A stretch of 64,000 bases of DNA. Source: Bacteroidota bacterium (GTDB lineage: Bacteria; Bacteroidota; Bacteroidia; 2-12-FULL-35-15). The stretch spans positions 15,330 to 79,329 of the forward strand of contig JAOQAG010000019.1 in assembly GCA_025963715.1 (NCBI GenBank), given 5' to 3'. Shown one piece after another: positions 4,575-60,362 of the stretch. The notes under the pieces were generated by a model. It searched no databases, was not told where the DNA came from, and saw only the letters and a program-made list of their open reading frames with translations. The translations under genes were made by a program, and so were the position numbers. How positions within the stretch are numbered: position 1 is the stretch's first letter; every line of letters begins with the position of its first letter.

Positions 4575-4934
4575 ATGAAGGTTTTGAAAAACATGTTCTT
4601 TAAACCGGTCTTTCTGCTGGTTTCCTTCCTGCTGCTGAATTTTTCGGTAATGGCGGATGCAGCGCGTGTAAAAGAGGCTGCAGGTACGGAACAATCCAGC
4701 ATCAAAAAAAGCGAGCTGCTGGAGTCGAAAGGTATTATTGAACCGGCGATCGAACTGCTAAATGGCAGCAATTTTCAACAAAACTCCTCTTTTTTCAAGA
4801 AAAACAGCAGTCCGCAAGCCAATCTTGAGCTAAAAGCTTCCTTAACAGCGCATTTTTATTCTTTGAATTGTGATTTTTTCCATCACATTTCTTCTGTTCC
4901 CCTCTACCTTTTCAACCGGAGCATCCTGATCTGA
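4575..4934 (+). CDS. Hypothetical exported protein
   Basis: Signal-peptide-like N-terminus, preceded by TAnnTTTG. Confidence 0.6.
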   Translation: MKVLKNMFFKPVFLLVSFLLLNFSVMADAARVKEAAGTEQSSIKKSELLESKGIIEPAIELLNGSNFQQNSSFFKKNSSPQANLELKASLTAHFYSLNCDFFHHISSVPLYLFNRSILI

Positions 4935-5014
4935 TCTCTGTATTATTTTTTTGACAAACCGGTAAAGCAAAGCGCTTTGCTGCATTTATTCATTTAAATC
5001 ATACAGTATATATT

Positions 5015-5134
5015 ATGGAAACAAATCAAAATAACACCACACCGGAACAAAAAGGCAATGGCATCGGGCCGGTTGTGATCATCTCTATCGGATTAATTGC
5101 GGCATTGGTTGCATTAAAATTGTTTATGAGCTAA
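5015..5134 (+). CDS. 39-aa single-pass membrane protein (not in ORF track)
   Basis: METNQNNTTPEQKGNGIGPVVIISIGLIAALVALKLFMS*; its TAA overlaps the next ATG (TAATG). Confidence 0.65.
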   Translation: METNQNNTTPEQKGNGIGPVVIISIGLIAALVALKLFMS

Positions 5135-6105
5135 TGAATCCGCTGTTACAACAAATCATTATTGGATTAACCAAAAAGAATCGCGCCGGAACGCGCGATT
5201 CTTTAAATAAATATGGCCTTGCCAGGGAGTTTTACAAATTAAAGATCACCGGCTTTCACTTAATAAAAGATATTCTGCTGATGGCCATCGGTGTTTTGTC
5301 GGCAGGGTTTGGGCTCGAAAGTTTTTTACTTCCCAATTCCTTTATTGATGGCGGCGTTACGGGGATCTCACTGCTGACATCGGAATTAACGCATACATCC
5401 CTTTCTATTTTAATTGTGGTGATCAACCTGCCGTTCATTATTCTCGGTTATAAACAGATCGGGAAGGGCTTTGCGCTCAAGAGCATTCTTGCGATCTGCG
5501 GGCTGGCAGTTGTGATCAGCACGGTACATTACCCGGTGATCACATCGGATAAATTGCTGGTAGCGGTTTTTGGCGGCTTTTTCCTGGGAGCGGGAATAGG
5601 TTTGGCAGTAAGAGGCGGCGGTGTGCTGGATGGCACAGAGATTTTAGCGATCTACCTCACCAAGCGCACAGGCATGACCATGGGTGATATTATTCTGGTT
5701 TTTAATATTTTTATTTTTTCGGTTGCTGCTTACCTCCTCTCGGTCGAAACGGCGCTTTACTCGATCCTCACTTATCTTGCAGCAGCAAAAACAGTGGATT
5801 TTGTGATCGAAGGTGTGGAGGAATACATTGGTGTTACCATTGTATCCGCCCACAGCGATGCGATCCGGGTGATGATCATCCAGAAAATGGGACGCGGCGT
5901 TACTATTTATTCGGGGAAACGCGGCTTTGGAAAACGCGGTGACAGCTTAGCGGAGATCGATATTGTATACTCGGTGATCACGCGACTGGAAATTGCACGC
6001 ATGCAAACGGAGATCGAAAAAATTGACCAGAATGCGTTTATCGTGATGAACAGGGTGAAGGATACGAAGGGCGGGATTATAAAGAAGAGGGCCTTGGACC
6101 ATTAG
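5134..6105 (+). CDS. YitT family membrane protein (DUF161/DUF2179)
   Basis: FLLPN..IDGGVTGIS, GG..DGTEILA, C-terminal IDQNAFI. Confidence 0.9.
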   Translation: MNPLLQQIIIGLTKKNRAGTRDSLNKYGLAREFYKLKITGFHLIKDILLMAIGVLSAGFGLESFLLPNSFIDGGVTGISLLTSELTHTSLSILIVVINLPFIILGYKQIGKGFALKSILAICGLAVVISTVHYPVITSDKLLVAVFGGFFLGAGIGLAVRGGGVLDGTEILAIYLTKRTGMTMGDIILVFNIFIFSVAAYLLSVETALYSILTYLAAAKTVDFVIEGVEEYIGVTIVSAHSDAIRVMIIQKMGRGVTIYSGKRGFGKRGDSLAEIDIVYSVITRLEIARMQTEIEKIDQNAFIVMNRVKDTKGGIIKKRALDH

Positions 6106-6470
6106 CAACGAATAACGAATGAAAACGAATAACGGATCTGTGTAAAAAAAGTTCAAAGTTTAAAGTTCAAAAGTTTAAAATTTGCTATGTGTGAGTTCTG
6201 TGAGCTGTGTGATGGAACGCGGATAAGGCGGATGGGACGGATTGATGCGGATTTAATTTTTATGTGTACTACACAATAATGCAAGCAGGATCAATTCCCC
6301 TCTTGAGAGGGGTTAGGGGTGTGTTGGTACGGATAACGCCCGCCTGAACGATTTGGGCAGGAACAAAACGAATTTACGAATCTGTGTGGTGCTGTGTTTA
6401 TTTATTATCAAAATCACAAAAAAGAACTGTCATCCCGCAATGTTGCGGGATCTCATGAATGCTTGCAGGG
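6106..6470 (+). repeat. Intergenic mosaic of repeat modules joined by CTGTGT-like junctions
   Basis: ACGAAT, AAAGTTC, CGGAT, CCCCTCTTGAGAGGGG, CGCCCGCCTGAACG and GTCATCCCG..CGGGATCT modules, each recurring elsewhere in the window. Confidence 0.8.
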
Positions 6471-6581
6471 TGTATTTAATTTGTGCATAAAAACAACAGA
6501 GTACCATTAAACTTTAAGCAATTAAAAGAGTTTATATACATTACGAATACGAAAGACTAACGACTATATACAAAATACTAT

Positions 6582-8939
6582 ATGTGGAATTACATCGCCG
6601 GAAAAATTCTCCGAAATAAAATCACGTTTCTTATTGTGCTTGGGTTGATCACCGGGTTCATGGTCTATGAAACCTGCCAGATCAAATTGTCATACGACTT
6701 TGCACGCGTGTTACCGGTAGATGATCCGTCGTACATGGATTACATGAGCTTTAAGAAAAAATTCGGGGAAGACGGCAACGTGATGGTGATCGGATTTAAA
6801 AGCGATAATTTGTTTGAAGAAAAATTATTCAACAGCTGGAGCGGACTGGATCAGAAAATAAAATCGATCAAAGGGATCAAGGATGTGCTGGCATTAACGA
6901 GCTTGTACAACGTAACAAAAAACGACAGCCTGCATAAATTTGAATTCAAACCGATCAGCGGCGCGGCTCATTATTCGGCGCAGCAGCTGGATTCACTTAA
7001 ACAAATCATTTATTCGCTGCCATTTTACGACGGCCTTGTTTACAATAAGGAAACCGGCGCTACATTAATGGCGATCACCTTTAACAGCGCCGACCTGAAC
7101 AGCAAGCACCGGTTGGAAATGGTGAAAGACATCACTACAGCGGCAGATGCATTTGCAAAAGAAAACAATGTACCCGTGCATTATTCAGGCATGCCTTACA
7201 TCCGCTCGCACATCATGGAAAAAGTATCGGGCGAAATGGGTTTGTTCATGACGCTTGCGGTAATTGTAACCGCCGTTATTTTGTGGCTGTTCTTCCGCTC
7301 TTTCTCTTCCGTGATCGTATCGCTGATTGTTGCTGCTATTGGCGTGGTGTGGTCACTTGGCGTGATGCAGTTGTTCGGTTACAAGATCACCATCTTATCG
7401 GGATTGATCCCGCCGCTTATTATCGTGATCGGGATTCCCAACTGCGTTTTTCTCATTAATAAATACCATGCGGCGTATGTGAAGCATTCCAATAAAATGA
7501 AGGCGCTCACACAAACCATTGCCAGCATGGGCGGAACGCTGTTTTTAGCCAACGTTACTACGGCGATCGGGTTTGGCGTTTTGTATTATACCAACAGCCC
7601 GATGCTGGTGGAATTTGGCGTTGTTGCAGCAATCGGTGTGATGCTTACGTTTATGATCAGCATGATCGTAGCGCCCATATTCCTGAATTACATTGCTGTA
7701 CCAAAAGCAAAACATACCACGCATTTGGATGCAAAATACATTAACCGTCTGCTTGCAAAAGTGGATTACTGGGTGCAAAATAAGCGTGCGCAAATTTACA
7801 TCGTGATCTCGATCATTACGGTTGTTGGTTTTACCGGCATGACCATGATGCATGTGCTGGGGCATGTGGTGGATGACTTGCCGCAGAAAGATCCGGTGTA
7901 CAGCGACCTGCATTTTTTCGAAGAAAATTTTAAAGGTGTATTGCCATTTGAGATCGTGATCGATACGCGTGAAAAAGATGGCGTATTGAGCAGGAACGGA
8001 GCAATTTTATACAAGATCAACAAGCTGCAAAAAGTATTTGCAAAATATCCGGCATTCTCAAAACCCTTATCAATTGCAGAAGGCGTGAAGTTTTCGTACC
8101 AGGCGTATAATGATGGCGACAAGAAATTTTATACCGTTCCGGGTGCAACAGATCTGAAAACATTATCGGAATTTACCGGAACATTAACGGGACAACAAAA
8201 CAAACTAAAATTTTTTGTTGATAGCAGCAAACGTTACACCCGTGTGAGTTTTCAAATGGCGGATGTAGGATCGGTAGAAATAAAAAGACTGGTTGCGGAA
8301 TTAAAACCGAGGATCGACAGCATCTTTCCGCCGAAGGATTATGATGTTTCCTTAACGGGACATAGTTTGGTGTTTTTAAAATCGAATGATTATTTACTGG
8401 AGAATTTATACGAGAGCTTAGCAATCGAGATCCTGCTGGAAACGCTTGTTGGATTGGCGCTGTTCCGTTCCTTGCGGATCGTGATCCTTTCCAAAATCCC
8501 GGTATTGATCCCGCTGGTGATCACGGCCGGTGTGATGGGATTTTTGGGTATTAATTTTAAACCGACCACTATTTTAATTTTCAGCATTGCGTTTGGGATC
8601 TCCTCCGACGGTACCATTTATTTTCTGACGCGGTACCGGCAGGAATTACGGATCAAAGGCCAAAGCGTGGCGCAGGCAATTTCTACCACCATCCGGGAAA
8701 CCGGGCTGAGCATGATCTACACAGCGATCATTTTATTTTCGGGCTTTGCTATTTTTGCTGCATCGAGTTTTGGCGGCACGGTGGCGCTGGGAATTTTGGT
8801 TTCGCTTACCTTGCTCGTGGCGATCTGCACAAACCTGGTAATGTTACCGGCCATTTTGCTTTCGATCGATAAACGGAAAAGCCGGAGAGCGATGTTAAAA
8901 AAACCGCTGATCGAGATTTCGGAAGAAACGGAAGCGTAG
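6582..8939 (+). CDS. MMPL/RND family transporter
   Basis: Two repeats of TM plus extracytoplasmic loop plus 5 TM; IAFGISSDGTIYF motif. Confidence 0.9.
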   Translation: MWNYIAGKILRNKITFLIVLGLITGFMVYETCQIKLSYDFARVLPVDDPSYMDYMSFKKKFGEDGNVMVIGFKSDNLFEEKLFNSWSGLDQKIKSIKGIKDVLALTSLYNVTKNDSLHKFEFKPISGAAHYSAQQLDSLKQIIYSLPFYDGLVYNKETGATLMAITFNSADLNSKHRLEMVKDITTAADAFAKENNVPVHYSGMPYIRSHIMEKVSGEMGLFMTLAVIVTAVILWLFFRSFSSVIVSLIVAAIGVVWSLGVMQLFGYKITILSGLIPPLIIVIGIPNCVFLINKYHAAYVKHSNKMKALTQTIASMGGTLFLANVTTAIGFGVLYYTNSPMLVEFGVVAAIGVMLTFMISMIVAPIFLNYIAVPKAKHTTHLDAKYINRLLAKVDYWVQNKRAQIYIVISIITVVGFTGMTMMHVLGHVVDDLPQKDPVYSDLHFFEENFKGVLPFEIVIDTREKDGVLSRNGAILYKINKLQKVFAKYPAFSKPLSIAEGVKFSYQAYNDGDKKFYTVPGATDLKTLSEFTGTLTGQQNKLKFFVDSSKRYTRVSFQMADVGSVEIKRLVAELKPRIDSIFPPKDYDVSLTGHSLVFLKSNDYLLENLYESLAIEILLETLVGLALFRSLRIVILSKIPVLIPLVITAGVMGFLGINFKPTTILIFSIAFGISSDGTIYFLTRYRQELRIKGQSVAQAISTTIRETGLSMIYTAIILFSGFAIFAASSFGGTVALGILVSLTLLVAICTNLVMLPAILLSIDKRKSRRAMLKKPLIEISEETEA

Positions 8940-8969
8940 TGCTTTTAAATTTCCGATATTGTAGTACGA

Positions 8970-10310
8970 ATGACCGCACAAAAACTTCCTTTAAGTAAAC
9001 AGATCGCGTATGCTTTTGGCATGATGGGCTGGAGCATTATGATGAACCTGATCGGTGTGATCGTGGTTTATTTGTATGCACCACCTGATAATAGCGGGCT
9101 TCCGAGCCTGATCACACAGGCAACTATTTTTGGTTTTGTAAATGTGATCGCCATTATCATGTCGAGCGGGCGATTGGTGGATGCCGTGTACGACCCATTG
9201 ATAGCGCAATACAGCGACAAGAATAAAAATCCAAAAGGCAGGCGCATCCCGCTGATGAAAAAAGCGATCCTTCCCGCCCTGGTGTTTTGCTGCCTCATTT
9301 TTTATCCGTTAAAACAGGAAGAAAGCAGCACCAATATTGTGTGGCTGGTGATCATGCTGATCGGGTTTTACGTTTCAACGACTACGTATATCATTCCGTA
9401 TTATGCGCTGTTGCCGGAGTTGGCGCCATCCTCGGACGATAAAGTACGATTAGCCACCTGGCAATCGGTGGGTTATGTATTTGGAATTGGCGTAGCTTCC
9501 AATGCATTTAATTTAACAGATCAGCTGCAACATTCCATGCACATTGCTTCGCGGATCACAGCATTGCAATACGCGGTTTTTATCTTTGCGGTCCTTGGTG
9601 CTATTTGTCTTTGTGTTCCTGTATTTGCCATCGATGAACGAAAATACAGCAAGAGTATTCCCAGCTCTGTTCCCTTGCGTACTGCTTTGCGCGATACTTT
9701 GCGCAATAAAAATTTCCTGTTGTTTATTGTTGCTGATTTTTCTTATTTCATCGCGATCACGATTATCACTACCGGTTTGCTTTATTTCTTAAAAGTATTG
9801 CTGAGGCTGGAAGAAGCGCTGGGAAACAAGCTGATGATCATGATGGTGCTGGTGTCGTTTATTTTTTACCCGGTTGTTAATTTTCTTGCACGAAAAATCG
9901 GTAAAAAAATACTGGTGATCTTCTCCTTATTTTTATTGTCGCTGATCTTTTTAGGAATTTATTTCCTGGGGAAAGTGTCCATGGATCCTACCGTTCAAAT
10001 TTATGCACTCATTTGTGTTGCTTCCATTCCGCTTGCTTCGCTTAATATTTTACCAAACGCAATATTGGCGGAGATCATTGAAAAAGACAGTCTTGAATCG
10101 GGTGCAAATAAAGAAGCGATCTATTTTGCGGTGCGTTACTTTTTTGTAAAAATTGCGCAAACATTTGGGATCACGTTGTTTTCGATGTTCCTGATTTACG
10201 GCAAAGATCCGGGTAATGATTTTGGATTAAGGCTGAATGGGATCCTTGGGTTTGTGTTGTGTTTTGTGGCTGCGGTTACGTTTACACGGTTTAAGGAGAA
10301 GAAGGATTAA
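8970..10310 (+). CDS. MFS transporter (GPH/MelB-like)
   Basis: 12 TM, GRLVDAVYDPLIAQYSD, GRRIP, PYYALLPEL. Confidence 0.88.
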   Translation: MTAQKLPLSKQIAYAFGMMGWSIMMNLIGVIVVYLYAPPDNSGLPSLITQATIFGFVNVIAIIMSSGRLVDAVYDPLIAQYSDKNKNPKGRRIPLMKKAILPALVFCCLIFYPLKQEESSTNIVWLVIMLIGFYVSTTTYIIPYYALLPELAPSSDDKVRLATWQSVGYVFGIGVASNAFNLTDQLQHSMHIASRITALQYAVFIFAVLGAICLCVPVFAIDERKYSKSIPSSVPLRTALRDTLRNKNFLLFIVADFSYFIAITIITTGLLYFLKVLLRLEEALGNKLMIMMVLVSFIFYPVVNFLARKIGKKILVIFSLFLLSLIFLGIYFLGKVSMDPTVQIYALICVASIPLASLNILPNAILAEIIEKDSLESGANKEAIYFAVRYFFVKIAQTFGITLFSMFLIYGKDPGNDFGLRLNGILGFVLCFVAAVTFTRFKEKKD

Positions 10311-10349
10311 GGATTTTTGGATTAAGGAATTGGGATTTGCTTTGTGAAC

Positions 10350-10473
10350 GAAATTATAAATTATAGATGATGAATTATAAATTGCTGTGCGAAAAGGAAA
10401 TTATAAATTAGGAATTATAGATTATAAATTGCTGTGTGTAAAGGAAATTATAGATTATGAATTGCTATGTGTG
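10350..10473 (+). repeat. Tandem ~47-bp units of ATTATAA-type heptamers, each ending in GCTGTG
   Basis: Units start at 10350, 10397 and 10444; junctions at 10384, 10431 and 10464. Confidence 0.75.
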
Positions 10474-10514
10474 AAAAAATTAATGAATTAAAAAACTAAC
10501 CAACCATTATACTC

Positions 10515-33865: not shown

Positions 33866-35455
33866 TTATGCTTCTATCTGTATAATTTGTCCTGCATATT
33901 TACTCTTTACAAAATCAATAACAACCCCGCATCCCTTTTTTATCATTTCATCAGTGTATGCCGTCTGTTTTCTTATAACACCATGAGAACCATCATGCAT
34001 TAAGGAATATATAAATTCATTTTTACTTAGAACTTCTTTTTGTTCGCAAAAATCCTTTAAAGTTAAATTAGGTGCTTCAAACTTATTAATTGTTTCAAGT
34101 ACATGCCTAACAGAATTTGGGGTAGTGTGTGATGGCTTGTTTCCATTGGAAACACTATGTATATCTCTAAGATGTTCCTCATAAGGCATTACTAACTCCC
34201 TCGAAAGTATTGTTAATTTATTACTTGAAAGAATTAGAGGTTCTTGAATAATCTTATTCCGAATAAGAATACTCATAAATTCTAAATTATGAGTAAATAT
34301 TAAAAAGCGTATCCTTTCTAATTTTAAATCTATATGCAAGTTCCGTATAATTTGTGAAACAGAATAGACATAATGAAAATCTAAACTGGAAATAGGGTCA
34401 TCAATAATAAAAAATAGTTTCCCATAGTCTTCATCTTTTGAAATTACTTTGTGCATGTCTGCTAAATAGTAACAAAAAGCGACAATACTTTTTTCTCCAT
34501 CACTTAATACGTCAATGGCATTGTTTTCTAATAATTGCGTATTGAATTTTAGGCAAAAAGTTTCTTCGTCAAAACTATATTTATCGCCAAAAAAGCTATT
34601 TAAATATATTTTCAAGCTTTCTACAACCTTTTCTTTCTTACTCACTTTTACGCTACTTTCCTTACCAGAAATGTCATTTTCGAGTTCTTTCTTTTTAAGA
34701 TATAAAGCTTTAATTTTTTTTATTTGCGTCTTCTGCTCATCCTGCAGAGCAATGTATCGTGCCTTACATAACCTTCGGTTAATATTTAATTTTTCCGAAC
34801 TTATATTATTTTTTTTATCATTTATGGTATTTATTTTGAAATTGTTTTCACTGGCATTATCGTCTAAATGTTTAATTTGATTATTAATATTTTTAATAGA
34901 TGCTTCATATTCTTTTTTGTCAATCGACAGTTCAATATTATTTTTCTTTTTATCCAACAATTTCAATAACGTCTTAAATTCGTCAATTAGATATTTATAA
35001 TCTTTTAACTCAACTAACTCGGAGTTACTATCAGATGGGATAAATTTTTTAAGAGAATTATATTCATTTTTAATTTTCAAAAACAAAGAATTATCATTTA
35101 CTAATTCTTTTTCAAGTGCCATTATTGACTGGCTTAGTTTTTTTATTTGTGAATGCACTTGTGCTTCCGAATCATTTAAATATTCTGTGTATTTATCAAT
35201 TAAAGCAATTGCATCGATTTTCAAGATTTGTTCACAGAAAGGGCAATTATCTTTTCCACTGATCTCTTTTGGAAGAAGTGCTAAACCATGCTCAATAAAA
35301 TCCTGTTTACTAACTATTTTATTTTTGAAGTTATCAGCGATTGAGCTTTTAGAATATTTTGTATTAAATAGTGCAATCAAATCAATAAGGAAATTTGCTT
35401 TAGAAAAATAAAAAATTTGAGAAACATCCTTTAAATCCTCAGGAATATTGCTTAA
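33866..35455 (-). pseudogene. C-terminal 529 codons of a disrupted RloC-like AAA_13 ATPase-HEPN gene
   Basis: Zn-hook CPFC, signature LSDGEK, Walker B FIIDDPISSLD, THN, HEPN-like RHVLE..HDGSH; no Walker A; in frame with 59712-60362. Confidence 0.88.
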
Positions 35456-35463
35456 CAATTTAT
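35456..35463 (+). repeat. Left 8-bp target-site duplication CAATTTAT
   Basis: Identical to 59712-59719 and directly abutting the terminal inverted repeat. Confidence 0.92.
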
Positions 35464-35496
35464 GGTACGTATGTGGTTCAACACCATGCCTAAACA

Positions 35497-35563
35497 ATAT
35501 AAAGTTCAGGAACGTGGCTTAGCTTTTAAAGATTAGGCCCCTTTGATATTTGTTCAGGAACTT
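35497..35563 (+). repeat. Left subterminal repeats, consensus T(A/T)TAAAG(A/T)(A/T)(C/T)AGGAACGT
   Basis: 35497-35515, 35524-35542 and a degenerate copy near 35546-35563. Confidence 0.65.
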
Positions 35564-50398: not shown

Positions 50399-52414
50399 TT
50401 ATGATTTGTTGAATCCTTGCTTTTGTAATTTTAATTTTTCATAAAGTTCGAAATCCAACAGAGCTGCTATCGTATTTATATGCTTTATTGTGAACCCTTT
50501 CGGCTTATTCTTGCTGTGCAATTCTGCTTCGAGCTCTCTCCGCAGCGAATCCAATGCGGATGTGTTTTCATATTCTATTATTAAAGAAGTCATGCAATTT
50601 TCTATACACTTTTCAATCCAATTTAAGTACGGCTTCAAATCGCTTCTTCCATTTATCGGCTTTAATAAATTATCAATGCTTTCGGGATTAGATTCATAAA
50701 TTACAATTGTTTTCGAGGTTTCTTTTTCATCATTATTATCAACATTAATAGGTGGAGCAAGTGAAATTGTTTTTAATTGTGGTAATAATGGTTCAAGCTC
50801 ATCTTTTAGTGTCATATCAATAGCTGCAACTATACCTAAGTTCTCCTTTTTCCATAGAGGTTTTACATAAATTTTGGCAATAGATACAAATCCATTAAAT
50901 GATCCCCAATAATTCATTGCATAATTATAGGAAGGAATATAAAACTGTTCGCAATACCCTAACAGATCTTCAAAACTTTTATACTTTAAAACAAATACAG
51001 CAAAATTTGAAATGATTACTGACTTAATTGAGCGAATATCGAAGGCCGCTTGCTTTCCGTTTATAAAATTATAAAATGTAATCAGATCAAGTCTTTGCCT
51101 GGATTTCTCTCCAAATAGTTCCGTTACCCTGTTTCCTACATCAATAATAAGAGTATTAATATCTTCGCCAGAAACTTCCCCAAAACTATGTTTGTTCTTA
51201 TTCCATAAAAGATTAACAATATACTCATGCAGTTTTTTTTGTTCGGAGTCCAGTTTATTGGATTTATGCAAATATTTTATTTCGTCACCTTGTAAATGGT
51301 AATCTTTAAGGCACGCAGCAATATCGGCTGCAGTTGGTTCCTGGCTAGAGCTTTTGAATTGAGATAATTTCTGAGAGAAGTTTTCAATTCGTTTCTCTAT
51401 TTTTTCTATAATTTTAGTTTTGTAACTATTGTGATAATAAGAGTTTGAAACCTGGATAACTTCTCTTTGCATATCATCAATTTCAAATTGAATGCTAGGA
51501 GCAACCTTCTCCGAACTTCTATATAAAAACTGCATTAATTCAGGCATTTTAGAAGAGGTTCTTAAAATGGAATTTATATCCTCTTCAGCAATGCCTTTAG
51601 AATCCAGCAACGCCTTTACTTTTTCTGCTGGATTTATTGGCGCGTGTTTAGAAATTATGCTTTTAAGTTGAATAAATGATTTACCAACAAGATTAAGTGC
51701 ATACTCGATATTTTCCCCCTTCTTATTGTTTTTGTATTTTTTTTCTTCGGAAACGGCTAATACAGCGCTAACATATGAACGCCAAGATTTATACAATTCC
51801 CTAACCGCATTATCTATTGTAAGCTCATCATTATCTTTGATAAGCATTTTTGCAATGATGTTTGAATACAAAAGCCCTTTAAATGCATTTATAACTTCAT
51901 CTCTCTTTAATACATCAGTCGAAACACGATAATCATCCTGAACATTTATATTAAGATTACTTTTTTCACTCGATGATCCTAACTCTGAAAACGTTACAAA
52001 TTGTTTCTGATATTTTTCGATTGTCTTAGCTTCCAGGGAAGGTAAGCTCTTTGCAATGATTTGGTTCCTCTCGTTCGCATCTCTAAATACAAATACTGGT
52101 GAACAAAAATTTAAATAGATGTTATCCTTATAACCAATGACGGCTTGATCTCCTTTATTATCAATGGGGATACTATCATGTATATAGCCATTATTAATTC
52201 CAATGTAAAATATAAGCGCATCATCTTCAACAGGTAAAGATTCTGCTTCAGGCAAAAAATTGTATAATAGCAAAAGACTCTGCAACGGACTAGCCGTATT
52301 ATAGAAGAATCTTTTGCTACCAAATTTTCTCTCTTTATAGAAAGAACCAGGTGATATACTTTCACCTGAAAATATTGAATTGAAATTAAACGAGTTTACT
52401 GGTATATATAACAT
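50399..52414 (-). CDS. Large hypothetical protein coupled to the helicase
   Basis: 671 aa, starts 2 bp after the helicase stop. Confidence 0.8.
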   Translation of the reverse strand: MLYIPVNSFNFNSIFSGESISPGSFYKERKFGSKRFFYNTASPLQSLLLLYNFLPEAESLPVEDDALIFYIGINNGYIHDSIPIDNKGDQAVIGYKDNIYLNFCSPVFVFRDANERNQIIAKSLPSLEAKTIEKYQKQFVTFSELGSSSEKSNLNINVQDDYRVSTDVLKRDEVINAFKGLLYSNIIAKMLIKDNDELTIDNAVRELYKSWRSYVSAVLAVSEEKKYKNNKKGENIEYALNLVGKSFIQLKSIISKHAPINPAEKVKALLDSKGIAEEDINSILRTSSKMPELMQFLYRSSEKVAPSIQFEIDDMQREVIQVSNSYYHNSYKTKIIEKIEKRIENFSQKLSQFKSSSQEPTAADIAACLKDYHLQGDEIKYLHKSNKLDSEQKKLHEYIVNLLWNKNKHSFGEVSGEDINTLIIDVGNRVTELFGEKSRQRLDLITFYNFINGKQAAFDIRSIKSVIISNFAVFVLKYKSFEDLLGYCEQFYIPSYNYAMNYWGSFNGFVSIAKIYVKPLWKKENLGIVAAIDMTLKDELEPLLPQLKTISLAPPINVDNNDEKETSKTIVIYESNPESIDNLLKPINGRSDLKPYLNWIEKCIENCMTSLIIEYENTSALDSLRRELEAELHSKNKPKGFTIKHINTIAALLDFELYEKLKLQKQGFNKS

Positions 52415-52416
52415 GG

Positions 52417-53529
52417 TTATCTTTTAGGCCTAAAATCATTTTTTTCATATAATCCATTTGGAATTGGCTCCAAATAAGAGTGAAAGTCATTGGTGCAGGT
52501 AATGGTTAATTCCTGACTTGCCCTGGTACATGCAACATACAAAGGTGTTTTTTCTTTTATTTTTGAATTTTGCTTTGAACAAAAAGGTAAAAACACATTT
52601 TCAAATTGCAATCCTTTCGCACTATGATAAGTAAGAATTTTTGGATTATCCGTCATGAAATCTAAAGTCATAACATCTGGGTTTGCTGCAATGTCTTCTT
52701 CATCATCACTATCACTTTTTTTCTTACGATATTTTACTTCGCACGTGATATCTCTGGCAAGAAGTTCATTAAACAATCTTTCTGCTGCTTCATTATCTGG
52801 CAATAATATACCAACATCTCTTAATCCCTTAGAGGTTATCTGATTTATAATAAATTCTATTTCGGCTGTATCTGATTTACAAACCGCAATAGTTGGAATA
52901 CGTGCTCCTTCTTTTTTACATTGTGATTCTAACGGATCACTGGTTGAATTTAAATGCTGAGCAAATCGGGCAATTTTTTTAGGAAGTCTATGGTTGATCT
53001 TTAAATTACGTATTGGCAAGTTTAAAGTTGCTGCAATTTCTTCTACCGATAAAGTTTTTTCCTTTTTTTCTGTTTTGGTGGTATAATCTCTAACAGTTTT
53101 AATAGGATATAACTTTTGCGCAGTGTCACCGAATAATGCCATGGAGATAGTTGCATTTTTTTGGAATGATTCTATTTCTTCTAAAGTGAAATCTTGAACT
53201 TCATCTACAATTAAATGAGTTACAGTTGGCATGCCAGCATATTTCCACTGGTCATAAGTCATTACTTTTTTCCAGCTATCCTTTGCATATGGGTTATCCG
53301 TGAGAACATCCTTCATGAATTTTTTTAGGGCCTTAGTATATACTATTATCCGACAATCCTCGCCAGTGGCTAAAACTTCAATAGCCCTCCATATGGCAAG
53401 AATGGTTTTCCCACTCCCTGCACAACCTTTTACAACATAGGAATTATTAAGGCTCATTCGCTTGATATTGTACTGATTATCATCTAGTTCACTTTCAGAT
53501 ATGAACCAACTTTCTCTTTGTGCTGCCAT
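52417..53529 (-). CDS. Minimal superfamily-1 (UvrD-like) helicase
   Basis: GCAGSGKT, IVDEVQD, FGDTAQ, NHR, TYHSAKGLQFENV, LYVACTRA. Confidence 0.88.
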   Translation of the reverse strand: MAAQRESWFISESELDDNQYNIKRMSLNNSYVVKGCAGSGKTILAIWRAIEVLATGEDCRIIVYTKALKKFMKDVLTDNPYAKDSWKKVMTYDQWKYAGMPTVTHLIVDEVQDFTLEEIESFQKNATISMALFGDTAQKLYPIKTVRDYTTKTEKKEKTLSVEEIAATLNLPIRNLKINHRLPKKIARFAQHLNSTSDPLESQCKKEGARIPTIAVCKSDTAEIEFIINQITSKGLRDVGILLPDNEAAERLFNELLARDITCEVKYRKKKSDSDDEEDIAANPDVMTLDFMTDNPKILTYHSAKGLQFENVFLPFCSKQNSKIKEKTPLYVACTRASQELTITCTNDFHSYLEPIPNGLYEKNDFRPKR

Positions 53530-53556
53530 ATTTTTTTAAATTAAATTGTTACATTA

Positions 53557-53587
53557 TTTGACAAATATAGAAAATTTATTATATTTG
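53557..53587. promoter_or_regulatory. Overlapping divergent promoters
   Basis: Plus: TTTG(53557-60)-19 nt-TATATTTG(53580-87). Minus: CAAATATA(53562-69) reads TATATTTG. Confidence 0.65.
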
Positions 53588-53609
53588 TAACAGATTTAAA
53601 AAATAAATT

Positions 53610-53951
53610 ATGGATAACACAATTGGCAAAAATCTAAAAGCCCTCAGAGATAGCCTCGGACTTAGTCAAGAGCAGGTAGCTAATTACTTAACGATTGAGA
53701 GGGTGATGATTAGTTATTATGAAAATGGCACTCGATCAGTGCCAATACCAACTTTAATGAAGCTTGCAGATTTATTTGGGGTTGAAACAAAAGACTTATT
53801 AGAAGAAAACCAAAAACAATCTCAACTCAATAGTGCATTTGCATTTAGAGCAAGCAATGTTTCTGAAAAAGATATGGAAGTCATTGCTTCATTTAAAAGA
53901 ATAGCAAGAAATTATATTAAAGCAAAAGAAAAATTAAAATCAAATGATTGA
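53610..53951 (+). CDS. XRE-family HTH regulator
   Basis: LKALRDSLGLSQEQVA..ISYYENG..LMKLADLF; C-terminal AFR motif. Confidence 0.9.
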   Translation: MDNTIGKNLKALRDSLGLSQEQVANYLTIERVMISYYENGTRSVPIPTLMKLADLFGVETKDLLEENQKQSQLNSAFAFRASNVSEKDMEVIASFKRIARNYIKAKEKLKSND

Positions 53952-54651
53952 GCGTCTAAAAATGGAAAAAAGAGCAATTGCCTTTCGCGAAAGGTATAAT
54001 ATTGGTCCAACGGAGGCAGTAAAATATTATGATTTACTGGAACGGTTAGGAATTATCACCCTTTTTGCAGAACTATCAGATGGTGTTTCTGGAATGGCTA
54101 TTAAAGTTGATGATTATAGGTTTATGCTTATTAACCGCAATATGGTTATGGGTAAGCAACATTTCACTATTGGTCATGAACTATACCACTTGTATGAGCA
54201 GGAAGATTTTTCCTTTAAGGTATCAAGTGTTGAAAATTTTTCAAGACAGGATAAAGAGGAGTATTTAGCAGATCTTTTTGCTTCACATCTTCTTTTGCCT
54301 GGTGCAGGCATCCTTGCACTGGTGCCTGATGGAGAATTGGCAAAAAATAAAATTGACATAACTACTATTCTTAAGATAGAACAATATTTTCTATGCTCAA
54401 GGATTGCCGTTTTGTATCGTTTAAAAGAACTAGGATTAATTTCAGACGATTACTCTGAGCAGTTTAAAACGGGTATTGCAAAATCTGCTCTTGACCATGA
54501 TTACCCACGTGATTTGTACTTCGCAACAACAGAAGATAAATTTTTCGGGACTGATTACATTTCTACGATTGAAACCCTTTATGAAAAGGGCATAATGAAA
54601 GAAATTGATTATATAACCAGTATGCAAGATATTGGAATCGCTAAAATTTAA
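53944..54651 (+). CDS. ImmA/IrrE family Zn metallopeptidase
   Basis: FTIGHELYH (HExxH), E..ADLFASHLLLP. Confidence 0.9.
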   Translation: MIERLKMEKRAIAFRERYNIGPTEAVKYYDLLERLGIITLFAELSDGVSGMAIKVDDYRFMLINRNMVMGKQHFTIGHELYHLYEQEDFSFKVSSVENFSRQDKEEYLADLFASHLLLPGAGILALVPDGELAKNKIDITTILKIEQYFLCSRIAVLYRLKELGLISDDYSEQFKTGIAKSALDHDYPRDLYFATTEDKFFGTDYISTIETLYEKGIMKEIDYITSMQDIGIAKI

Positions 54652-54659
54652 TATGCTTT

Positions 54660-55214
54660 ATGACAGAACTATTACTACTCGCGGATTCCGATATACTAAT
54701 CCATTTTTTTAGAGGTAACAAATTAAAATTACTGCCTAAGATTCTTCCTAACAAGATTTGCCTGCTGGATGCCGTTGTTGCAGAGCTGCAGTATGGGAGA
54801 TCTCCGACTCTTTATGATCGGATAATGAAGGAAATTGGCAGCTCTATAATTTTGGAAAAATTTACTGACAAGCCCTTGATCTATAACGAATGGGTGAAGT
54901 TAGTACGAGCAGATATTGGCTCAGGTGAAAGTGCATGTTTAGCAATGGCTAGGTATGAAGGGCATCACATCGCGAGTTCGAATCTAAGAGATATTAACGA
55001 TTATTGTAAGGACAACAAAATCAGGGTGTACACAACTATGGACCTAATTCATGAAGCTTATACTAAAGGTCTATTAACTGAAGATGATTGTGATTCCTTT
55101 ATAATTGATGTTCTAGATGCAGGTAGCAGACTTCCCTGCAGCACATTTGCTGAATACCTTGCAAAACATGCATCCAAAAGTCCCTGGCGGTCATATGACA
55201 GGAGAGTTGCATAA
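54660..55214 (+). CDS. PIN-domain protein
   Basis: LLADSDILIHF, VVAEL, GSGESACLA, IASSN..D. Confidence 0.78.
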   Translation: MTELLLLADSDILIHFFRGNKLKLLPKILPNKICLLDAVVAELQYGRSPTLYDRIMKEIGSSIILEKFTDKPLIYNEWVKLVRADIGSGESACLAMARYEGHHIASSNLRDINDYCKDNKIRVYTTMDLIHEAYTKGLLTEDDCDSFIIDVLDAGSRLPCSTFAEYLAKHASKSPWRSYDRRVA

Positions 55215-58509: not shown

Positions 58510-58626
58510 TACTTTACTTCAAGATTTAGTAGTTAATAAAAATTTGCTGCTAAACATTTGAAAGAACACCCAGGCTTAGCAAATACTTGGATTATAAGTT
58601 ATCTTTACTACAAAAAACAACATAAT

Positions 58627-59619
58627 ATGACTGAAGACGAAATTCGTAATAGTTGGATTTACCAAACCACGGGTGAGATCAATCTTCATCAACCTGGAGT
58701 TGATATTGGAACACAGCCAATTCGTGTTGTACATGCTTTGACAATTTATCTTTATCAGCGGACTAATCCTGAATTTTTTAATGAAATTTTATCTGGTAAA
58801 GGTGCAGGGGATAATATTGATCTGGTGGTTGGTGAAGAACCCATTACAATTGAATCTGGTGGTAAAAGAACCCCAAGAGTGCATCTGAATACAAAAAAAA
58901 TTGAACTGCACGAAACTTTTCTTTCTTATTTGTGGGCTACAATTTATTCGATATTTGTTCTTCATTCAGAAACCATTGATTATCCTGAGATAAATGCAAG
59001 GGTTGGATTGATAAGATATCCAATTTCAGAAGCAAACATTGCTTCCGCAAAAGAATTGTTTGCATATGCAAAAAAAATAATACGATTTTTTGATACTTGG
59101 GATAAGGAAACACTTCCCAATCCTGAAGTGTTTCCAGCTGAAAACAGGCACTATGTGCGACAAACTTGCGCCTTTTATACAGAAGCTGTGAAATTTATTC
59201 TATGTCATGAATATACGCACTTAAGAGACCATAGTCATAAATACGCAAATGCTGATGTATCACATTTTCTTGAATTTGAAAAGGAAGCGGATAACAATGC
59301 AATAGATATGATGAAAAAGGGAATTACACCCATCAATCAGTTAGCAGTCGAAAATGGCATTATTTTCGGTCTTTTATCCATGTTTTTTTTCGGTGCTAAT
59401 ACTAGTGGAGGACTGACACATCCTAATGTGGAGGATCGTTTAATAAATGCAATTGAGCGACTTGATTTAATTGACAATCAATATCCCTGGCAATTAGCGT
59501 ATGTTGCTTTTAAACTTTGGGATGAACAATTTGAACTTAATCTAGAATGGAAAAACTTGCCAACATACCAAGAGAAATTCCATGACATTATACTACAAAT
59601 AAAACAAAGGTCCGCATAA
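58627..59619 (+). CDS. Phage exclusion protein Lit-like metallopeptidase (U49); ATG start reassigned
   Basis: FILCHEYTH, EKEADNNA, THP..EDRL. Confidence 0.72.
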   Translation: MTEDEIRNSWIYQTTGEINLHQPGVDIGTQPIRVVHALTIYLYQRTNPEFFNEILSGKGAGDNIDLVVGEEPITIESGGKRTPRVHLNTKKIELHETFLSYLWATIYSIFVLHSETIDYPEINARVGLIRYPISEANIASAKELFAYAKKIIRFFDTWDKETLPNPEVFPAENRHYVRQTCAFYTEAVKFILCHEYTHLRDHSHKYANADVSHFLEFEKEADNNAIDMMKKGITPINQLAVENGIIFGLLSMFFFGANTSGGLTHPNVEDRLINAIERLDLIDNQYPWQLAYVAFKLWDEQFELNLEWKNLPTYQEKFHDIILQIKQRSA

Positions 59620-59626
59620 CCTCTCA

Positions 59627-59673
59627 ACGTTTCCAATCTTTATAAAGCCCAGGAACGTTCCTATTCTTTAAAA
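59627..59673 (-). repeat. Right subterminal repeats
   Basis: Reverse complements TTTTAAAGAATAGGAACGT (59655-73) and TTATAAAGATTGGAAACGT (59627-45). Confidence 0.65.
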
Positions 59674-59711
59674 CTTTAGGACTAAGAGCGGTTCTAAACT
59701 ACATACGTACC

Positions 59712-59719
59712 CAATTTAT
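59712..59719 (+). repeat. Right 8-bp target-site duplication CAATTTAT
   Basis: Identical to 35456-35463. Confidence 0.92.
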
Positions 59720-60362
59720 TTAACACCTTTAATTCTTTAAATGTTTTTTCTTCTTCATACTCAAGATTATTATCGTAAACATTTTGATAATTAAACTTAT
59801 ATTCTTTGGTTGCTTTGTTTACTTTCTCGATATCAAGTTCTTCTTTCGCAGAATCAATAGCGTCCTGAAAAATTATAATTTCTTCACGAAGATTTGTTTG
59901 CAGATCTTCTAACAATTTTTTTTCTTTACTTAAATCTATTACAGCTTTTCCGATTATATACCCTTCTATCTCACCATCTGCTTTATAATGCAATTCTTCT
60001 ATATTTTCTTTAACATAATCACTATTAAATACATGAAAAATATATCCAGTATCATTAATAATTACAGGCTCTTTATTCTTTTGTAATTTTATTGAAAGAT
60101 TTCTTGTTGTTTCCACGTTCTCCTTTTTTTCTTTAATTTGAAATGCAAAGGACCCACTGGTTTTGTTTATGGCTAATAGCTTATTGGTTTTTTCTGCAGT
60201 ATTTACATTAATCAATCGAAACATACGACTTAAAAAAGTTTTTCCACTTCCATTATTAGCAAAAACCCCAATTTTCAAAGCAGTCATAGGAAAAGTAGCG
60301 GTCAAATTTTCATGTGGACCAATATTTTGAGCTTCTATTTTTGTATTAATAGTTTTTGCCAT
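59712..60362 (-). pseudogene. N-terminal 217 codons of the disrupted RloC-like AAA_13 gene
   Basis: Walker A FANNGSGKT, HVFNSDYV..N; the tracked ORF ends inside the transposon TIR. Confidence 0.88.

Follow-up and report, generated by a model that had tools for sequence, protein, structure and literature searches.

Gabija, in which the OLD nuclease GajA is joined by the helicase GajB, and Hachiman, in which the DUF1837 protein HamA is joined by the SF2 helicase HamB, are described defence systems built from a helicase and a partner protein. Other defence operons are accompanied by CapH/CapP pairs, which are reported to lie upstream of and divergent from them and to be switched on by ssDNA (Lau et al., bioRxiv 10.1101/2022.04.27.489752), and methyltransferase–DUF1848 modules occur with the UG25/UG35 reverse-transcriptase systems (Mestre et al. 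2022, PMC9226505). Auxiliary effectors of BREX were surveyed in 2026 (PMC12839542), and a UvrD/SF1 helicase pair of the kind described here is not mentioned in that survey.

The window analysed here—a stretch of 64,000 nucleotides—carries a gene for a small helicase (HEL) followed by a gene for a large protein of an unnamed family (PART). The original prediction likened this pair to Gabija and Hachiman, and the general logic of that analogy stands, but there is neither an OLD nuclease nor a DUF1837 partner. Like Gabija, the pair combines a UvrD-like SF1 motor with a large partner, and HEL matches many GajB models; PART, however, lacks OLD/TOPRIM and ABC ATPase domains and gives no match to GajA in PADLOC, nor do its distant members, HEL has 370 aa compared with ~500, and the helicase gene comes first in the window. 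Hachiman differs in that HEL belongs to SF1 and PART has no DUF1837 or HamA match. With CapH/CapP-regulated operons the window shares an XRE HTH protein and an M78 peptidase with an HExxH motif, placed upstream and divergent, as well as a palindromic site in the shared promoter, but the operon is HEL–PART rather than CBASS or DISARM, and a third, PIN-like gene follows the peptidase gene. The likeness to UG25/UG35 concerns the clade II relatives of the pair, which are flanked by a methyltransferase-like gene (weakly matching the methylase part only of UG35, 2.9e-6) and by a DUF1848 gene matching RTasDUF1848 (7e-42). No reverse transcriptase is present at any locus of the pair, however, the long C2 proteins of relatives have a NERD-like N-terminus and are not reverse transcriptases, and the window cassette has neither a methylase nor a reverse transcriptase. 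Some relatives sit inside BREX as embedded accessory genes, whereas the copy in the window lies outside any BREX locus.

A conserved helicase–partner gene pair

Both open reading frames were found at the positions originally given for them (Table 1), with 2 nt between the HEL stop codon and the PART ATG and the helicase gene upstream. Among 75 loci from different species, 72 have HEL immediately upstream of PART and in the same orientation, the median spacing being 2 nt, and the two genes stay together in about 70 bacterial species; pairing of this regularity is far beyond chance, and HEL and PART are a conserved, mobile gene unit and a genuine pair. The description of the locus as a two-gene system falls short: the conserved unit in the window has five genes, of which those for the PIN-like, M78 and XRE proteins read divergently from HEL and PART. 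The 5 closest relatives show the same five-gene form. About 50 of 67 relatives have a methyltransferase-like gene and DUF1848 alongside the pair; the window's own clade has neither. Three small open reading frames downstream of PART (108, 92 and 156 aa) were rejected as operon members, having no homologues beside any other cassette.

Table 1. Positions of the cassette features in the window.
Feature	Coordinates	Strand	Basis or remark
PART, 671-aa protein of an unnamed family	50399..52414	minus	No family match
PART N-terminal domain (residues 1-192)	51839..52414	minus	Most conserved part; weakly resembles DarT and 2CompART
HEL, 370-aa helicase	52417..53529	minus	UvrD/SF1 family matches and motifs
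Divergent promoter/operator region, 80 bp	53530..53609		Nested inverted repeats
XRE-family HTH repressor candidate, 113 aa	53610..53951	+	Pfam HTH_3 4e-13; CapH-like position
M78 (ImmA/IrrE-type) zinc metallopeptidase, CapP-like, 235 aa	53944..54651	+	Pfam Peptidase_M78 1.5e-10
PIN-like protein, 184 aa, third gene of the regulator operon	54660..55214	+	Homologues carry DUF3368

By its motifs and family matches HEL is predicted to be a minimal SF1A (UvrD/Rep-like) helicase or translocase consisting of only two RecA-like domains. It matches Viral_helicase1 (1.8e-14), UvrD_C (7.5e-14) and AAA_19 in Pfam, the last two above cut-off, and no nuclease domain was found by the same search, in agreement with the compact, nuclease-free helicase first proposed. 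There are no inserts of 1B or 2B size; these accessory domains of UvrD, Rep and PcrA (proteins of ~650–720 aa) are absent, and the equivalog models for uvrD, rep and pcrA score ~18 bits on HEL compared with cut-offs above 900. The SF1 motifs Q, I, Ia, II, III, IV, V and VI are present in order and at least 90% conserved among 68 family members, and the ATPase motifs are intact in sequence: Walker A is GCAGSGKT (residues 35–42), motif II DEVQDF (109–114) and motif VI LYVACTR (330–336). Conserved sites in the 68 sequences are Q19, GCAGSGK (35–41), V63/T65, DE.QDF (109–114), GD..Q (134–138), N179/R181, TYHS.KGLQF (300–309) and LYVA.TR (330–336). The best PADLOC matches are C3a187 NERD+UvrD (2.5e-23) and GajB (9e-15), RTasHel is also matched, and HelD (6wvk, 6e-5) and GajB (3e-4) were matched in the PDB. 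The subfamily is itself a minimal core, with 1723 homologues of ~350 aa.

The systems of neither protein are represented in PADLOC 2.0.0 and PART belongs to no Pfam family, in support of a new candidate system; a literature search, incomplete in coverage, found no description of the HEL–PART pair, experimental or other.

The partner protein and ADP-ribosyltransferases

The unfamiliar nature of the large gene 2 bp from the helicase was borne out. PART had no match in Pfam, NCBIfam, PADLOC (including at E≤1) or PHROGs, and family and profile searches recognised no catalytic domain in it. A word-indexed homology search with PART, and likewise with a 50-sequence profile, returned one relative only, because low-complexity words saturate the candidate list; exhaustive HMMER was needed, and a library search of this kind (E≤1e-3) produced a family of 602 representative clusters. 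The protein begins MLYIPVNSFNFNSIFSGESISP and is laid out as an N-terminal alpha/beta domain (~residues 1–145), a capping helix (166–191) and then a long all-helical body, with a second conserved block at ~440–555. Residues F11, E18, S19, S21, P22, R29, G32, K130, G180 and G508 are invariant in 67 sequences, and some members end in Top1 zinc-ribbon, SAP or ExoX-C tails. AF2 models were obtained for the full-length protein (pLDDT 87.7, pTM 0.79) and for the N-domain (pLDDT 92.5, pTM 0.88). Foldseek with the full-length model against the PDB and BFVD gave helical noise only and no structural match, and profiles of PART and its N-domain retrieved nothing when run against the sequences of the PDB.

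An ADP-ribosyltransferase-like N-terminus lacking the histidine had been proposed for PART. The histidine is indeed missing from strand 1 (L-Y-I-P-V), and the resemblance itself is weakly supported by the predicted structure. With the confident N-domain model, the top PDB neighbours were Thermus DarT structures (7omx, 7omv, 7omw and 7omy; TM 0.32–0.43, E 0.39–1.0), which make up four of the top five with a probability of up to 0.47; the best of them reached TM 0.42–0.43 over ~207 columns at E 0.39, values that are not significant, and all other PDB matches had TM ~0.13. Among the PDB neighbours of the N-domain model DarT (PF14487, the DarT of DarTG) ranks best and is alone in being coherent, though below significance; both proteins open with a beta-strand and helix of the form aromatic-x6-N-x3-[IL][LF]. 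They differ in that PART has three times the length of DarT, is coupled with a helicase, lacks a DarG macrodomain antitoxin and has no profile similarity: hhalign of the two alignments found nothing (probability 0.09), and a Pfam scan of 67 PART N-domains at E≤10 contained no DarT match. The catalytic residues of DarT, H5, Y62-F63 and E155 in the numbering of the DarT alignment, are without counterparts, as are PFYF and AEFLV, and PART has neither an H-Y-E nor an R-S-E catalytic/NAD+ set. No macrodomain or ARH antidote of the DarG kind was found among the window neighbours scanned, and the downstream open reading frames are not conserved.

A second comparison is provided by two loci (L105 and L106) in which the same minimal SF1 helicase family, homologous to HEL (phmmer 2e-13 and 6.5e-16), is followed by a protein of 530–710 aa combining 2CompART and 2CompARG (PF22546 and PF22545). 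This cassette is named in Pfam, and no experimental work on it was found. The spacing Y-x6-N-x11-P-x6-R is common to the N-termini of PART and the 2CompART proteins, a collinear S-L-E-x-K..Y motif occurs in both, and hhalign aligned them in register over 46 columns at the N-terminus (E 0.013). No similarity to 2CompARG, by contrast, was seen in the helical body of PART. Neither Pfam model matched PART at E≤10 in genomes G000 and G175 and six other PART-bearing genomes, and PF22546, PF22545 and PF14487 were all without a match in the N-domain scan; true members score 1e-34 and 2e-23 with the ART model and 4e-31 and 4e-10 with the ARG model. 2CompART proteins occur in two of 401 genomes of the phylum, a scan of the phylum of G401 giving those genomes again, and in one of 221 genomes of the family of G027, and a metagenome scan with the two-sequence 2CompART alignment found no relative, so the comparison rests on two sequences. 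The shared position and N-terminal signature are suggestive of a relationship between PART and the 2CompART proteins but are not proof of homology.

These observations bear on whether PART has catalytic activity as a DarT-like DNA ADP-ribosyltransferase, with the helicase unwinding DNA for base ADP-ribosylation. The DarT neighbourhood of the N-domain, the pairing of the same helicase family with a 2CompART–2CompARG protein in the sister cassette and the common N-terminal spacing speak for such an enzyme. They are set against structural and profile scores that fall short of significance, the unmatched DarT residues and missing catalytic sets, the failure of all three Pfam models and the lack of a macrodomain or ARH partner, and we regard an active enzyme of this type as unlikely.

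Regulatory genes and genomic context

The region between the two operons contains an inverted repeat, TGTTACA (53547–53553) with TGTAACA (53586–53592), and nested within it a second, ACAAATAT (53561–53568) with ATATTTGT (53581–53588). The repeats overlap two back-to-back TAnnTTTG boxes, TATATTTG at 53580–53587 on the plus strand and its mirror at 53562–53569 on the minus strand. The arrangement TGTTACAAA...TTGTAACA is invariant in the window and in loci L001, L003 and L004, with flanking proteins only 40–55% identical. The XRE gene is divergent in all five of the closest cassettes and co-directional, upstream of HEL, in six sister loci; in the sister subclade HTH–M78 directly precedes HEL–PART in one operon (6/6 loci), so that the HTH/M78 genes are linked to HEL–PART in two arrangements. 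The M78 protein has an intact HExxH motif (HELYH, residues 78–82) and matches the PADLOC capP model (3.4e-20), which aligns to residues 7–163 only; no match confirmed a GAF-like sensor domain at the C-terminus. PIN-like homologues in L003, L004 and a JGI contig carry DUF3368 (PF11848), and this gene could encode a RosmerTA-like toxin; no RmrT model was matched.

The proposed defence role is in keeping with a strongly defence-like context (BREX-embedded relatives, the island and a CapP-like regulator), as judged from lists of neighbouring genes. The pair lies between PglX and PglZ/BrxL in four loci (L007, L010, L016 and L008), after PglX in L015 and next to BrxL in three others (L049, L051 and L064); in Flavobacteriaceae and other loci it is the bare pair that stands between pglX and pglZ on the same strand. 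The window island, of low GC content (32% compared with 42%), holds PDC-S06, Abi_alpha/PDC-S47, an HNH gene and a Lit-like gene; NACHT, RadC, HNH and ArdC are neighbours in L001, and Beta_protein and P4 cII lie beside the cassette in the JGI contig. Because the cassette rides a transposon or mobile island, its defence neighbours could in part reflect shared cargo space. Nor does the regulator prove defence, since HTH/M78 pairs likewise govern DNA-repair regulons and the induction of prophages and ICEs.

Of the 401 genomes of the phylum that were sampled, two contain the PART family, and a genome of the same genus lacks it; almost identical copies are found in members of different families, and one copy from Desulfovibrio falls within the Bacteroidota. 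A housekeeping role was rejected on the grounds of this rarity and absence and of the low-GC island. A phage origin was likewise rejected, the viral collections giving one match among the 2.9 million contigs of IMG/VR, besides a single virome scaffold that is unverified. The window DNA itself comes from a soil-metagenome assembly.

Proposed function and alternatives

We consider the region to be, on balance, a mobile, inducible candidate anti-phage or anti-MGE cassette, with a minimal SF1 helicase translationally coupled to the new-family protein PART as its invariant core. What is observed is the gene content with its conservation and contexts, the ATPase and HExxH motifs, both intact, and an operator that is conserved; from there on we infer a course of action as follows. 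By analogy with CapH/CapP, the XRE repressor would probably bind the TGTTACA...TGTAACA palindrome, which overlaps both promoters, and hold both operons low until ssDNA arising from infection or DNA damage leads the CapP-like M78 peptidase to cleave it. HEL and PART are likely, in view of the 72/75 adjacency and the 2-nt gap, to be made in fixed ratio and to form one complex, in which PART would serve a motor devoid of accessory domains as the subunit that handles DNA and acts as effector. This complex would, somewhat less surely, load on foreign or replicating DNA, a target suggested by the Top1 zinc-ribbon, SAP or ExoX-C tails of some PART members. A conserved polar pocket of the N-domain (E18, S19, S21, R29, K130, D172 and K179) might then bind or chemically modify the exposed strand and block replication; actual ADP-ribosyl transfer is doubtful. 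The PIN-like gene may be a co-induced second effector or toxin, a possibility that we place a little below even chances.

The pair could instead serve a mobile element, an IS1595-type giant transposon or ICE, in replication, transposition, transfer or maintenance or as anti-defence cargo, with the XRE/M78 genes as an ImmR/ImmA-like induction switch. An IS1595 transposase and a DUF2779 nuclease do lie ~4 kb from the window cassette in its low-GC mobile island, DUF2779 recurs close to the cassettes of L003 and the JGI contig and ArdC close to that of L001, and ImmR/ImmA-type pairs control element mobilisation (10.1101/2022.04.27.489752). Most of the 71 genome loci, however, have neither a transposase nor DUF2779 beside the pair, several are inside chromosomal BREX operons or a methyltransferase/DUF1848 operon, an integrase or relaxase is not consistently linked, and PLSDB (72,556 plasmids) gave 0 matches. 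We regard service to an element as quite unlikely. When the presumed 24-kb transposon was searched for 12-bp inverted repeats at its ends, none turned up, and a near-direct repeat alone was seen. We hold it to be very improbable that the genes form a damage-inducible repair or replication-rescue module, in which an IrrE/DdrO-like switch releases a UvrD/HelD-like motor and its adaptor, which would remove stalled complexes or act on damaged DNA. Regulation of repair genes is known for M78/HTH pairs of the IrrE/DdrO type, and the best curated match of HEL is the C-terminal part of HelD (NCBIfam, 3.5e-15, and 6wvk in the PDB); but the NCBIfam score is far below cut-off (55 compared with 419 bits), the N-terminal RNAP-binding part of HelD is absent, and relatives are embedded in BREX. 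The rare, patchy and horizontally transferred distribution, with absence from a same-genus genome, is also unlike that of a repair function.

It is decidedly improbable, too, that the locus consists of two unrelated neighbours, a self-contained RosmerTA-like toxin–antitoxin or abortive system (XRE–M78–PIN) and a separate HEL–PART, with only the intergenic region in common. The M78 protein matches 13 RmrA models (best 1.2e-16), RmrA being an HTH–M78 antitoxin, but the HTH and peptidase are separate genes in the window; the PIN-like protein matches the single-gene candidate PDC-S70 (8.6e-6) and its gene is confined to the window's subclade, and in most loci HEL–PART is without any HTH or M78 gene. 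Against this, five of five subclade members keep all five genes, with the palindrome across both promoters, and the sister subclade has the single operon noted above.

To return to the candidate defence cassette, a further extension of it is speculative and of low probability: PART might be a strongly diverged ADP-ribosyltransferase-derived enzyme, kin to DarT and 2CompART, with an active site rebuilt around E18/S19/S21/R29/K130, that covalently marks motor-exposed DNA. HEL–PART would then form a portable core, the basis of a new class of immune effectors that are driven by a helicase and modify nucleic acids, and would plug into three control layers, a CapH/CapP-type switch in the window, a methyltransferase and DUF1848 writer/eraser in gut Bacteroidales and BREX in Flavobacteriaceae, and it could supply the missing step of BREX, the stopping of phage replication. 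The recurrent pglX–pglZ placement gives a way into the question of how additional effectors are recruited to BREX loci, and a distant tie of PART to DarT-type DNA ADP-ribosylation is possible.

The window carries the minimal version of the cassette—only the helicase and its partner, accompanied by an explicit switch of repressor and protease and by a conserved operator—and therefore separates the core from what is accessory in the larger methyltransferase–DUF1848 operons, in a small construct of <5 kb. Should it protect against phages, a widespread family (~600 clusters) with no Pfam family or solved relative would join the catalogue of bacterial immunity. The PART clusters are mostly from Bacteroidota and include the human-gut species Segatella copri, Alistipes putredinis and Phocaeicola coprophilus.

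A helicase gene and its partner of unnamed family

HEL, a 370-aa minimal SF1 helicase, and PART, a 671-aa protein, are encoded exactly where the original prediction placed them, and PART starts as given there (MLYIPVNSFNFNSIFSGESISP); 2 nt separate the HEL stop codon from the PART ATG. The description of HEL as a compact UvrD-like helicase is borne out by Pfam matches to Viral_helicase1, UvrD_C and AAA_19. Its top PADLOC matches are a 'NERD+UvrD' candidate (2.5e-23) followed by many GajB models, its closest PDB sequences are HelD (6e-5) and GajB (3e-4), and the sole NCBIfam match is to the C-terminal part of HelD, far under the cut-off. Each of the SF1 motifs Q, I, Ia, II, III, IV, V and VI is at least 90% conserved in a 68-member alignment, so HEL should, judged by sequence, be an active ATPase; at its length the 1B/2B accessory domains of UvrD, Rep and PcrA do not fit. 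The HEL subfamily has 1723 members of ~350 aa each.

PART was correctly predicted to lack a known family: it has zero matches in Pfam, PADLOC 2.0.0, NCBIfam and PHROGs, the pair is likewise absent from these four collections, and in each of 50 diverse members the core falls outside every Pfam family. A word-indexed search with PART returned 1 relative only, and an exhaustive profile search returned many more: 602 representative clusters at E≤1e-3, of which 385 pass E≤1e-10, with lengths of 560-800 aa in almost every case. A few members have Top1 zinc-ribbon, SAP or ExoX-C tails, a sequence feature that points to DNA as the probable substrate.

A scan using one genome per species gave 71 PART loci, mostly from Bacteroidota (including Segatella copri, Alistipes putredinis DSM 17216, Parabacteroides acidifaciens, Prevotella jejuni and Phocaeicola coprophilus), with the remainder from Ignavibacteriota and a Desulfovibrio. 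The two genes were originally put forward as a pair, and in 72 of 75 loci the gene immediately upstream, read from the same strand, is indeed a HEL homologue (median gap 2 nt); of the other three, one runs into a contig end, one is a frameshifted copy and one is rearranged. Given this adjacency and spacing, the pairing is real and under selection.

In one complete Bacteroidales MAG chromosome (L013, 6938-10275), HEL (168+207 aa) and PART (244+555 aa) are each present as two ORFs, and this copy is likely decaying.

Positions of the genes and repeats discussed in the text
Feature	Sequence	Position	Strand	Remark
HEL	window	52417-53529	-	370 aa
PART	window	50399-52414	-	671 aa
PDC-S06 ATPase gene	window	33866-35497	-	profile positions 217-748 of 752 matched; N-terminal third missing
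Near-direct repeats TATAAAG..CAGGAACGT	window	~35498-35515 and ~59641-59658
Lit-like peptidase	window	58558-59619	+	353 aa; PADLOC Lit peptidase model 3.2e-18
222-aa ORF	window	59694-60362	-	24 kb from the PDC-S06 gene, same strand
2CompART + 2CompARG protein	L105	6655-8784	+	Pfam
2CompART + 2CompARG protein	L106	5329-6933	-	Pfam
Extended methyltransferase-like gene	L054	4799-6910
Extended methyltransferase-like gene	L058	4827-6938
Extended methyltransferase-like gene	L062/L067	4859-6925
Extended methyltransferase-like gene	L069	4857-6809

Clades, companions and transfer

In a maximum-likelihood tree, 67 PART sequences fall into two well-supported clades, II (50 rows) and I (17 rows). Clade II is mainly from gut and rumen Bacteroidales, and its operon consists of a methyltransferase-like gene, HEL, PART and DUF1848 (Pfam 1.7e-93), or a permutation of these; BrxL adjoins three of its loci. 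A NERD-like (PD-(D/E)xK-type) N-terminal segment is present in part of the methyltransferase-like proteins and, in certain copies from Prevotellaceae, Alistipes and Bacteroides, brings their length to 650-703 aa. Clade I, to which the window belongs, is without the methyltransferase-like gene and DUF1848, with the sole exception of L008, and occurs in three contexts: bare HEL-PART between PglX and PglZ/BrxL of BREX operons (L007, L010 and L016; L008, also in BREX, has both additional genes, and in L015 the pair follows PglX); HTH, M78, HEL and PART as a single operon (6 loci); and PIN-like, M78 and HTH genes divergent from HEL and PART, identical in the window, L001, L003, L004/L005 and a JGI contig. 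The 8 of 71 loci that are BREX-adjacent are, by informal estimate, far more than expected by chance given the size of BREX loci. The searchable literature mentions only pieces of HEL-PART and its companions: DUF1848 and a UvrD-like helicase occur in association with UG25/UG35 reverse-transcriptase systems (PMC9226505), and a 2026 BREX survey (PMC12839542) does not mention the pair.

A contig titled as a Brevundimonas MAG (L053) carries HTH-M78-HEL-PART. Searches of this genome's phylum and of the phylum of the window gave exactly the same matches, which misassignment of the contig or the MAG may explain.

The PART family is rare and patchy, carried by 2 of the 401 genomes sampled from the phylum, absent from the same-genus genome checked and from all 72,556 members of a plasmid collection, and found in phage collections on 1 of 2.9 million IMG/VR contigs and one unverified virome scaffold. 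PART of Alistipes putredinis DSM 17216 (L062) and of Bacteroides mediterraneensis (L067) are near-identical (branch lengths 0.006 and 0.003) and have the same flanking genes though the species are of different families, and this indicates that horizontal transfer took place in the gut very recently. The Desulfovibrio PART is nested inside Bacteroidota in the tree. On these sequence relationships we consider the family to be horizontally mobile.

The unannotated scaffold MT835661.1 ('UNVERIFIED: Bacteriophage sp.', human faeces) has a full operon of methyltransferase-like gene, HEL, PART and DUF1848 at 4695-10485; it may represent defence cargo of a phage, a mobile element or contamination.

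The N-terminal domain of PART

The AlphaFold2 model of PART (67-sequence alignment; pLDDT 87.7, pTM 0.79) predicts an alpha/beta domain (~1-145) with a capping helix (166-191) and, beyond these, an extended body of helices. Invariant residues are concentrated in the first 35 positions (F11, E18, S19, S21, P22, R29 and G32), with K130, D172, K179 and G180 beyond, and there is a second conserved patch at F474-G508. The full model has no significant structural neighbour in PDB or BFVD.

The N-terminus had been predicted to resemble ADP-ribosyltransferase (ART) folds. When the N-domain is modelled alone (pLDDT 92.5, pTM 0.88), Thermus DarT, a DNA ADP-ribosyltransferase, does top the structural search, supplying four of the five best PDB matches (TM 0.32-0.43, ~207 columns, E 0.39-1.0; remaining matches TM ~0.13), but this resemblance between a model and DarT, though suggestive, is below significance, and the other ART comparisons are mostly negative. 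Alignment of PART with 22 DarT sequences by hhalign gave nothing (probability 0.09), the DarT invariants H5, Y62-F63 and E155 have no counterpart in PART, and a Pfam scan of all 67 N-domains at E≤10 recovered neither DarT nor 2CompART.

A sister cassette, with a 2CompART + 2CompARG protein directly downstream of a HEL homologue, is likewise rare, being present in two Bacteroidota genomes (2 of 401). Neither Pfam model matches PART; hhalign places the first 46 columns of PART in register with the 2CompART + 2CompARG proteins (E 0.013, probability 3%), and both have Y-x6-N-x11-P-x6-R spacing as well as a collinear S-L-E-x-K..Y motif. An ART origin of the PART N-domain is a serious possibility, a little short of even. 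That it transfers ADP-ribose is improbable, and with it the reading of PART as a fully active DarT-like enzyme, which has the structural search on its side and the missing DarT invariants against it.

A proposed divergent switch and its working

The pair had been proposed as a two-gene system; the pair itself is conserved, but the conserved unit in the window is five genes (50399-55214). The M78 protein has an intact HELYH motif and matches the PADLOC capP model (3.4e-20) and RmrA models (1e-16). The third gene of the regulator operon is PIN-like, with DUF3368 in its homologues and a PDC-S70 match (8.6e-6). Between the operons is an 80-bp stretch in which the inverted repeats TGTTACA/TGTAACA and ACAAATAT/ATATTTGT are nested and overlap two back-to-back TAnnTTTG boxes, and the outer repeat is unchanged in four cassettes whose proteins are just 40-55% identical. 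The small ORFs that follow PART have no conserved counterparts at other cassettes. CapH/CapP pairs, an HTH repressor and an ssDNA-activated metallopeptidase, are described as sitting upstream of defence operons and being read in the opposite direction (bioRxiv 10.1101/2022.04.27.489752), and their gene and promoter anatomy matches that of the window cassette. The window supplies a CapH/CapP-type switch with a conserved candidate operator, a minimal methyltransferase-free form of HEL-PART, and a link to the BREX-embedded copies.

From the parts list, conservation, contexts and intact motifs, all observed directly, we infer the following as the most likely mechanism. The repressor, an XRE-family HTH protein, would keep both divergent promoters low until the M78 peptidase, activated by ssDNA that arises from infection or damage, removes it. 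HEL and PART would then be co-produced as one complex, the HEL motor giving ATP-driven translocation or unwinding and the conserved N-terminal pocket of PART combining DNA handling with effector activity; the PIN-like protein would be a second, co-induced effector or toxin. We class the cassette with helicase-plus-effector defence modules under a damage-responsive switch. A rival reading, damage-inducible repair, is unlikely; the rare, patchy distribution and the copies in BREX operons speak against it. Another unlikely one takes the window cassette as two independent neighbouring systems: the bare occurrence of HEL-PART is in its favour, and against it are the recurrence of the five-gene arrangement at other loci and the loci where HTH and M78 share one operon with the pair.

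A further unlikely reading is that the pair serves the mobile element itself. The window is ~32% G+C from 34 to 62 kb and ~42% to the left, and the low-GC stretch also holds the PDC-S06 ATPase gene, Abi_alpha/PDC-S47, an HNH protein, DUF2130, the Lit-like peptidase and an IS1595 transposase adjoining a DUF2779 nuclease. The truncated PDC-S06 gene, the distant 222-aa ORF and the near-direct repeats fit a large insertion with putative ends, which would include the whole defence cargo and the HEL-PART cassette with it. Other cassettes of the window's subclade neighbour NACHT, RadC, HNH, ArdC, SocA_Panacea, CoiA, or Beta_protein and P4-cII genes.
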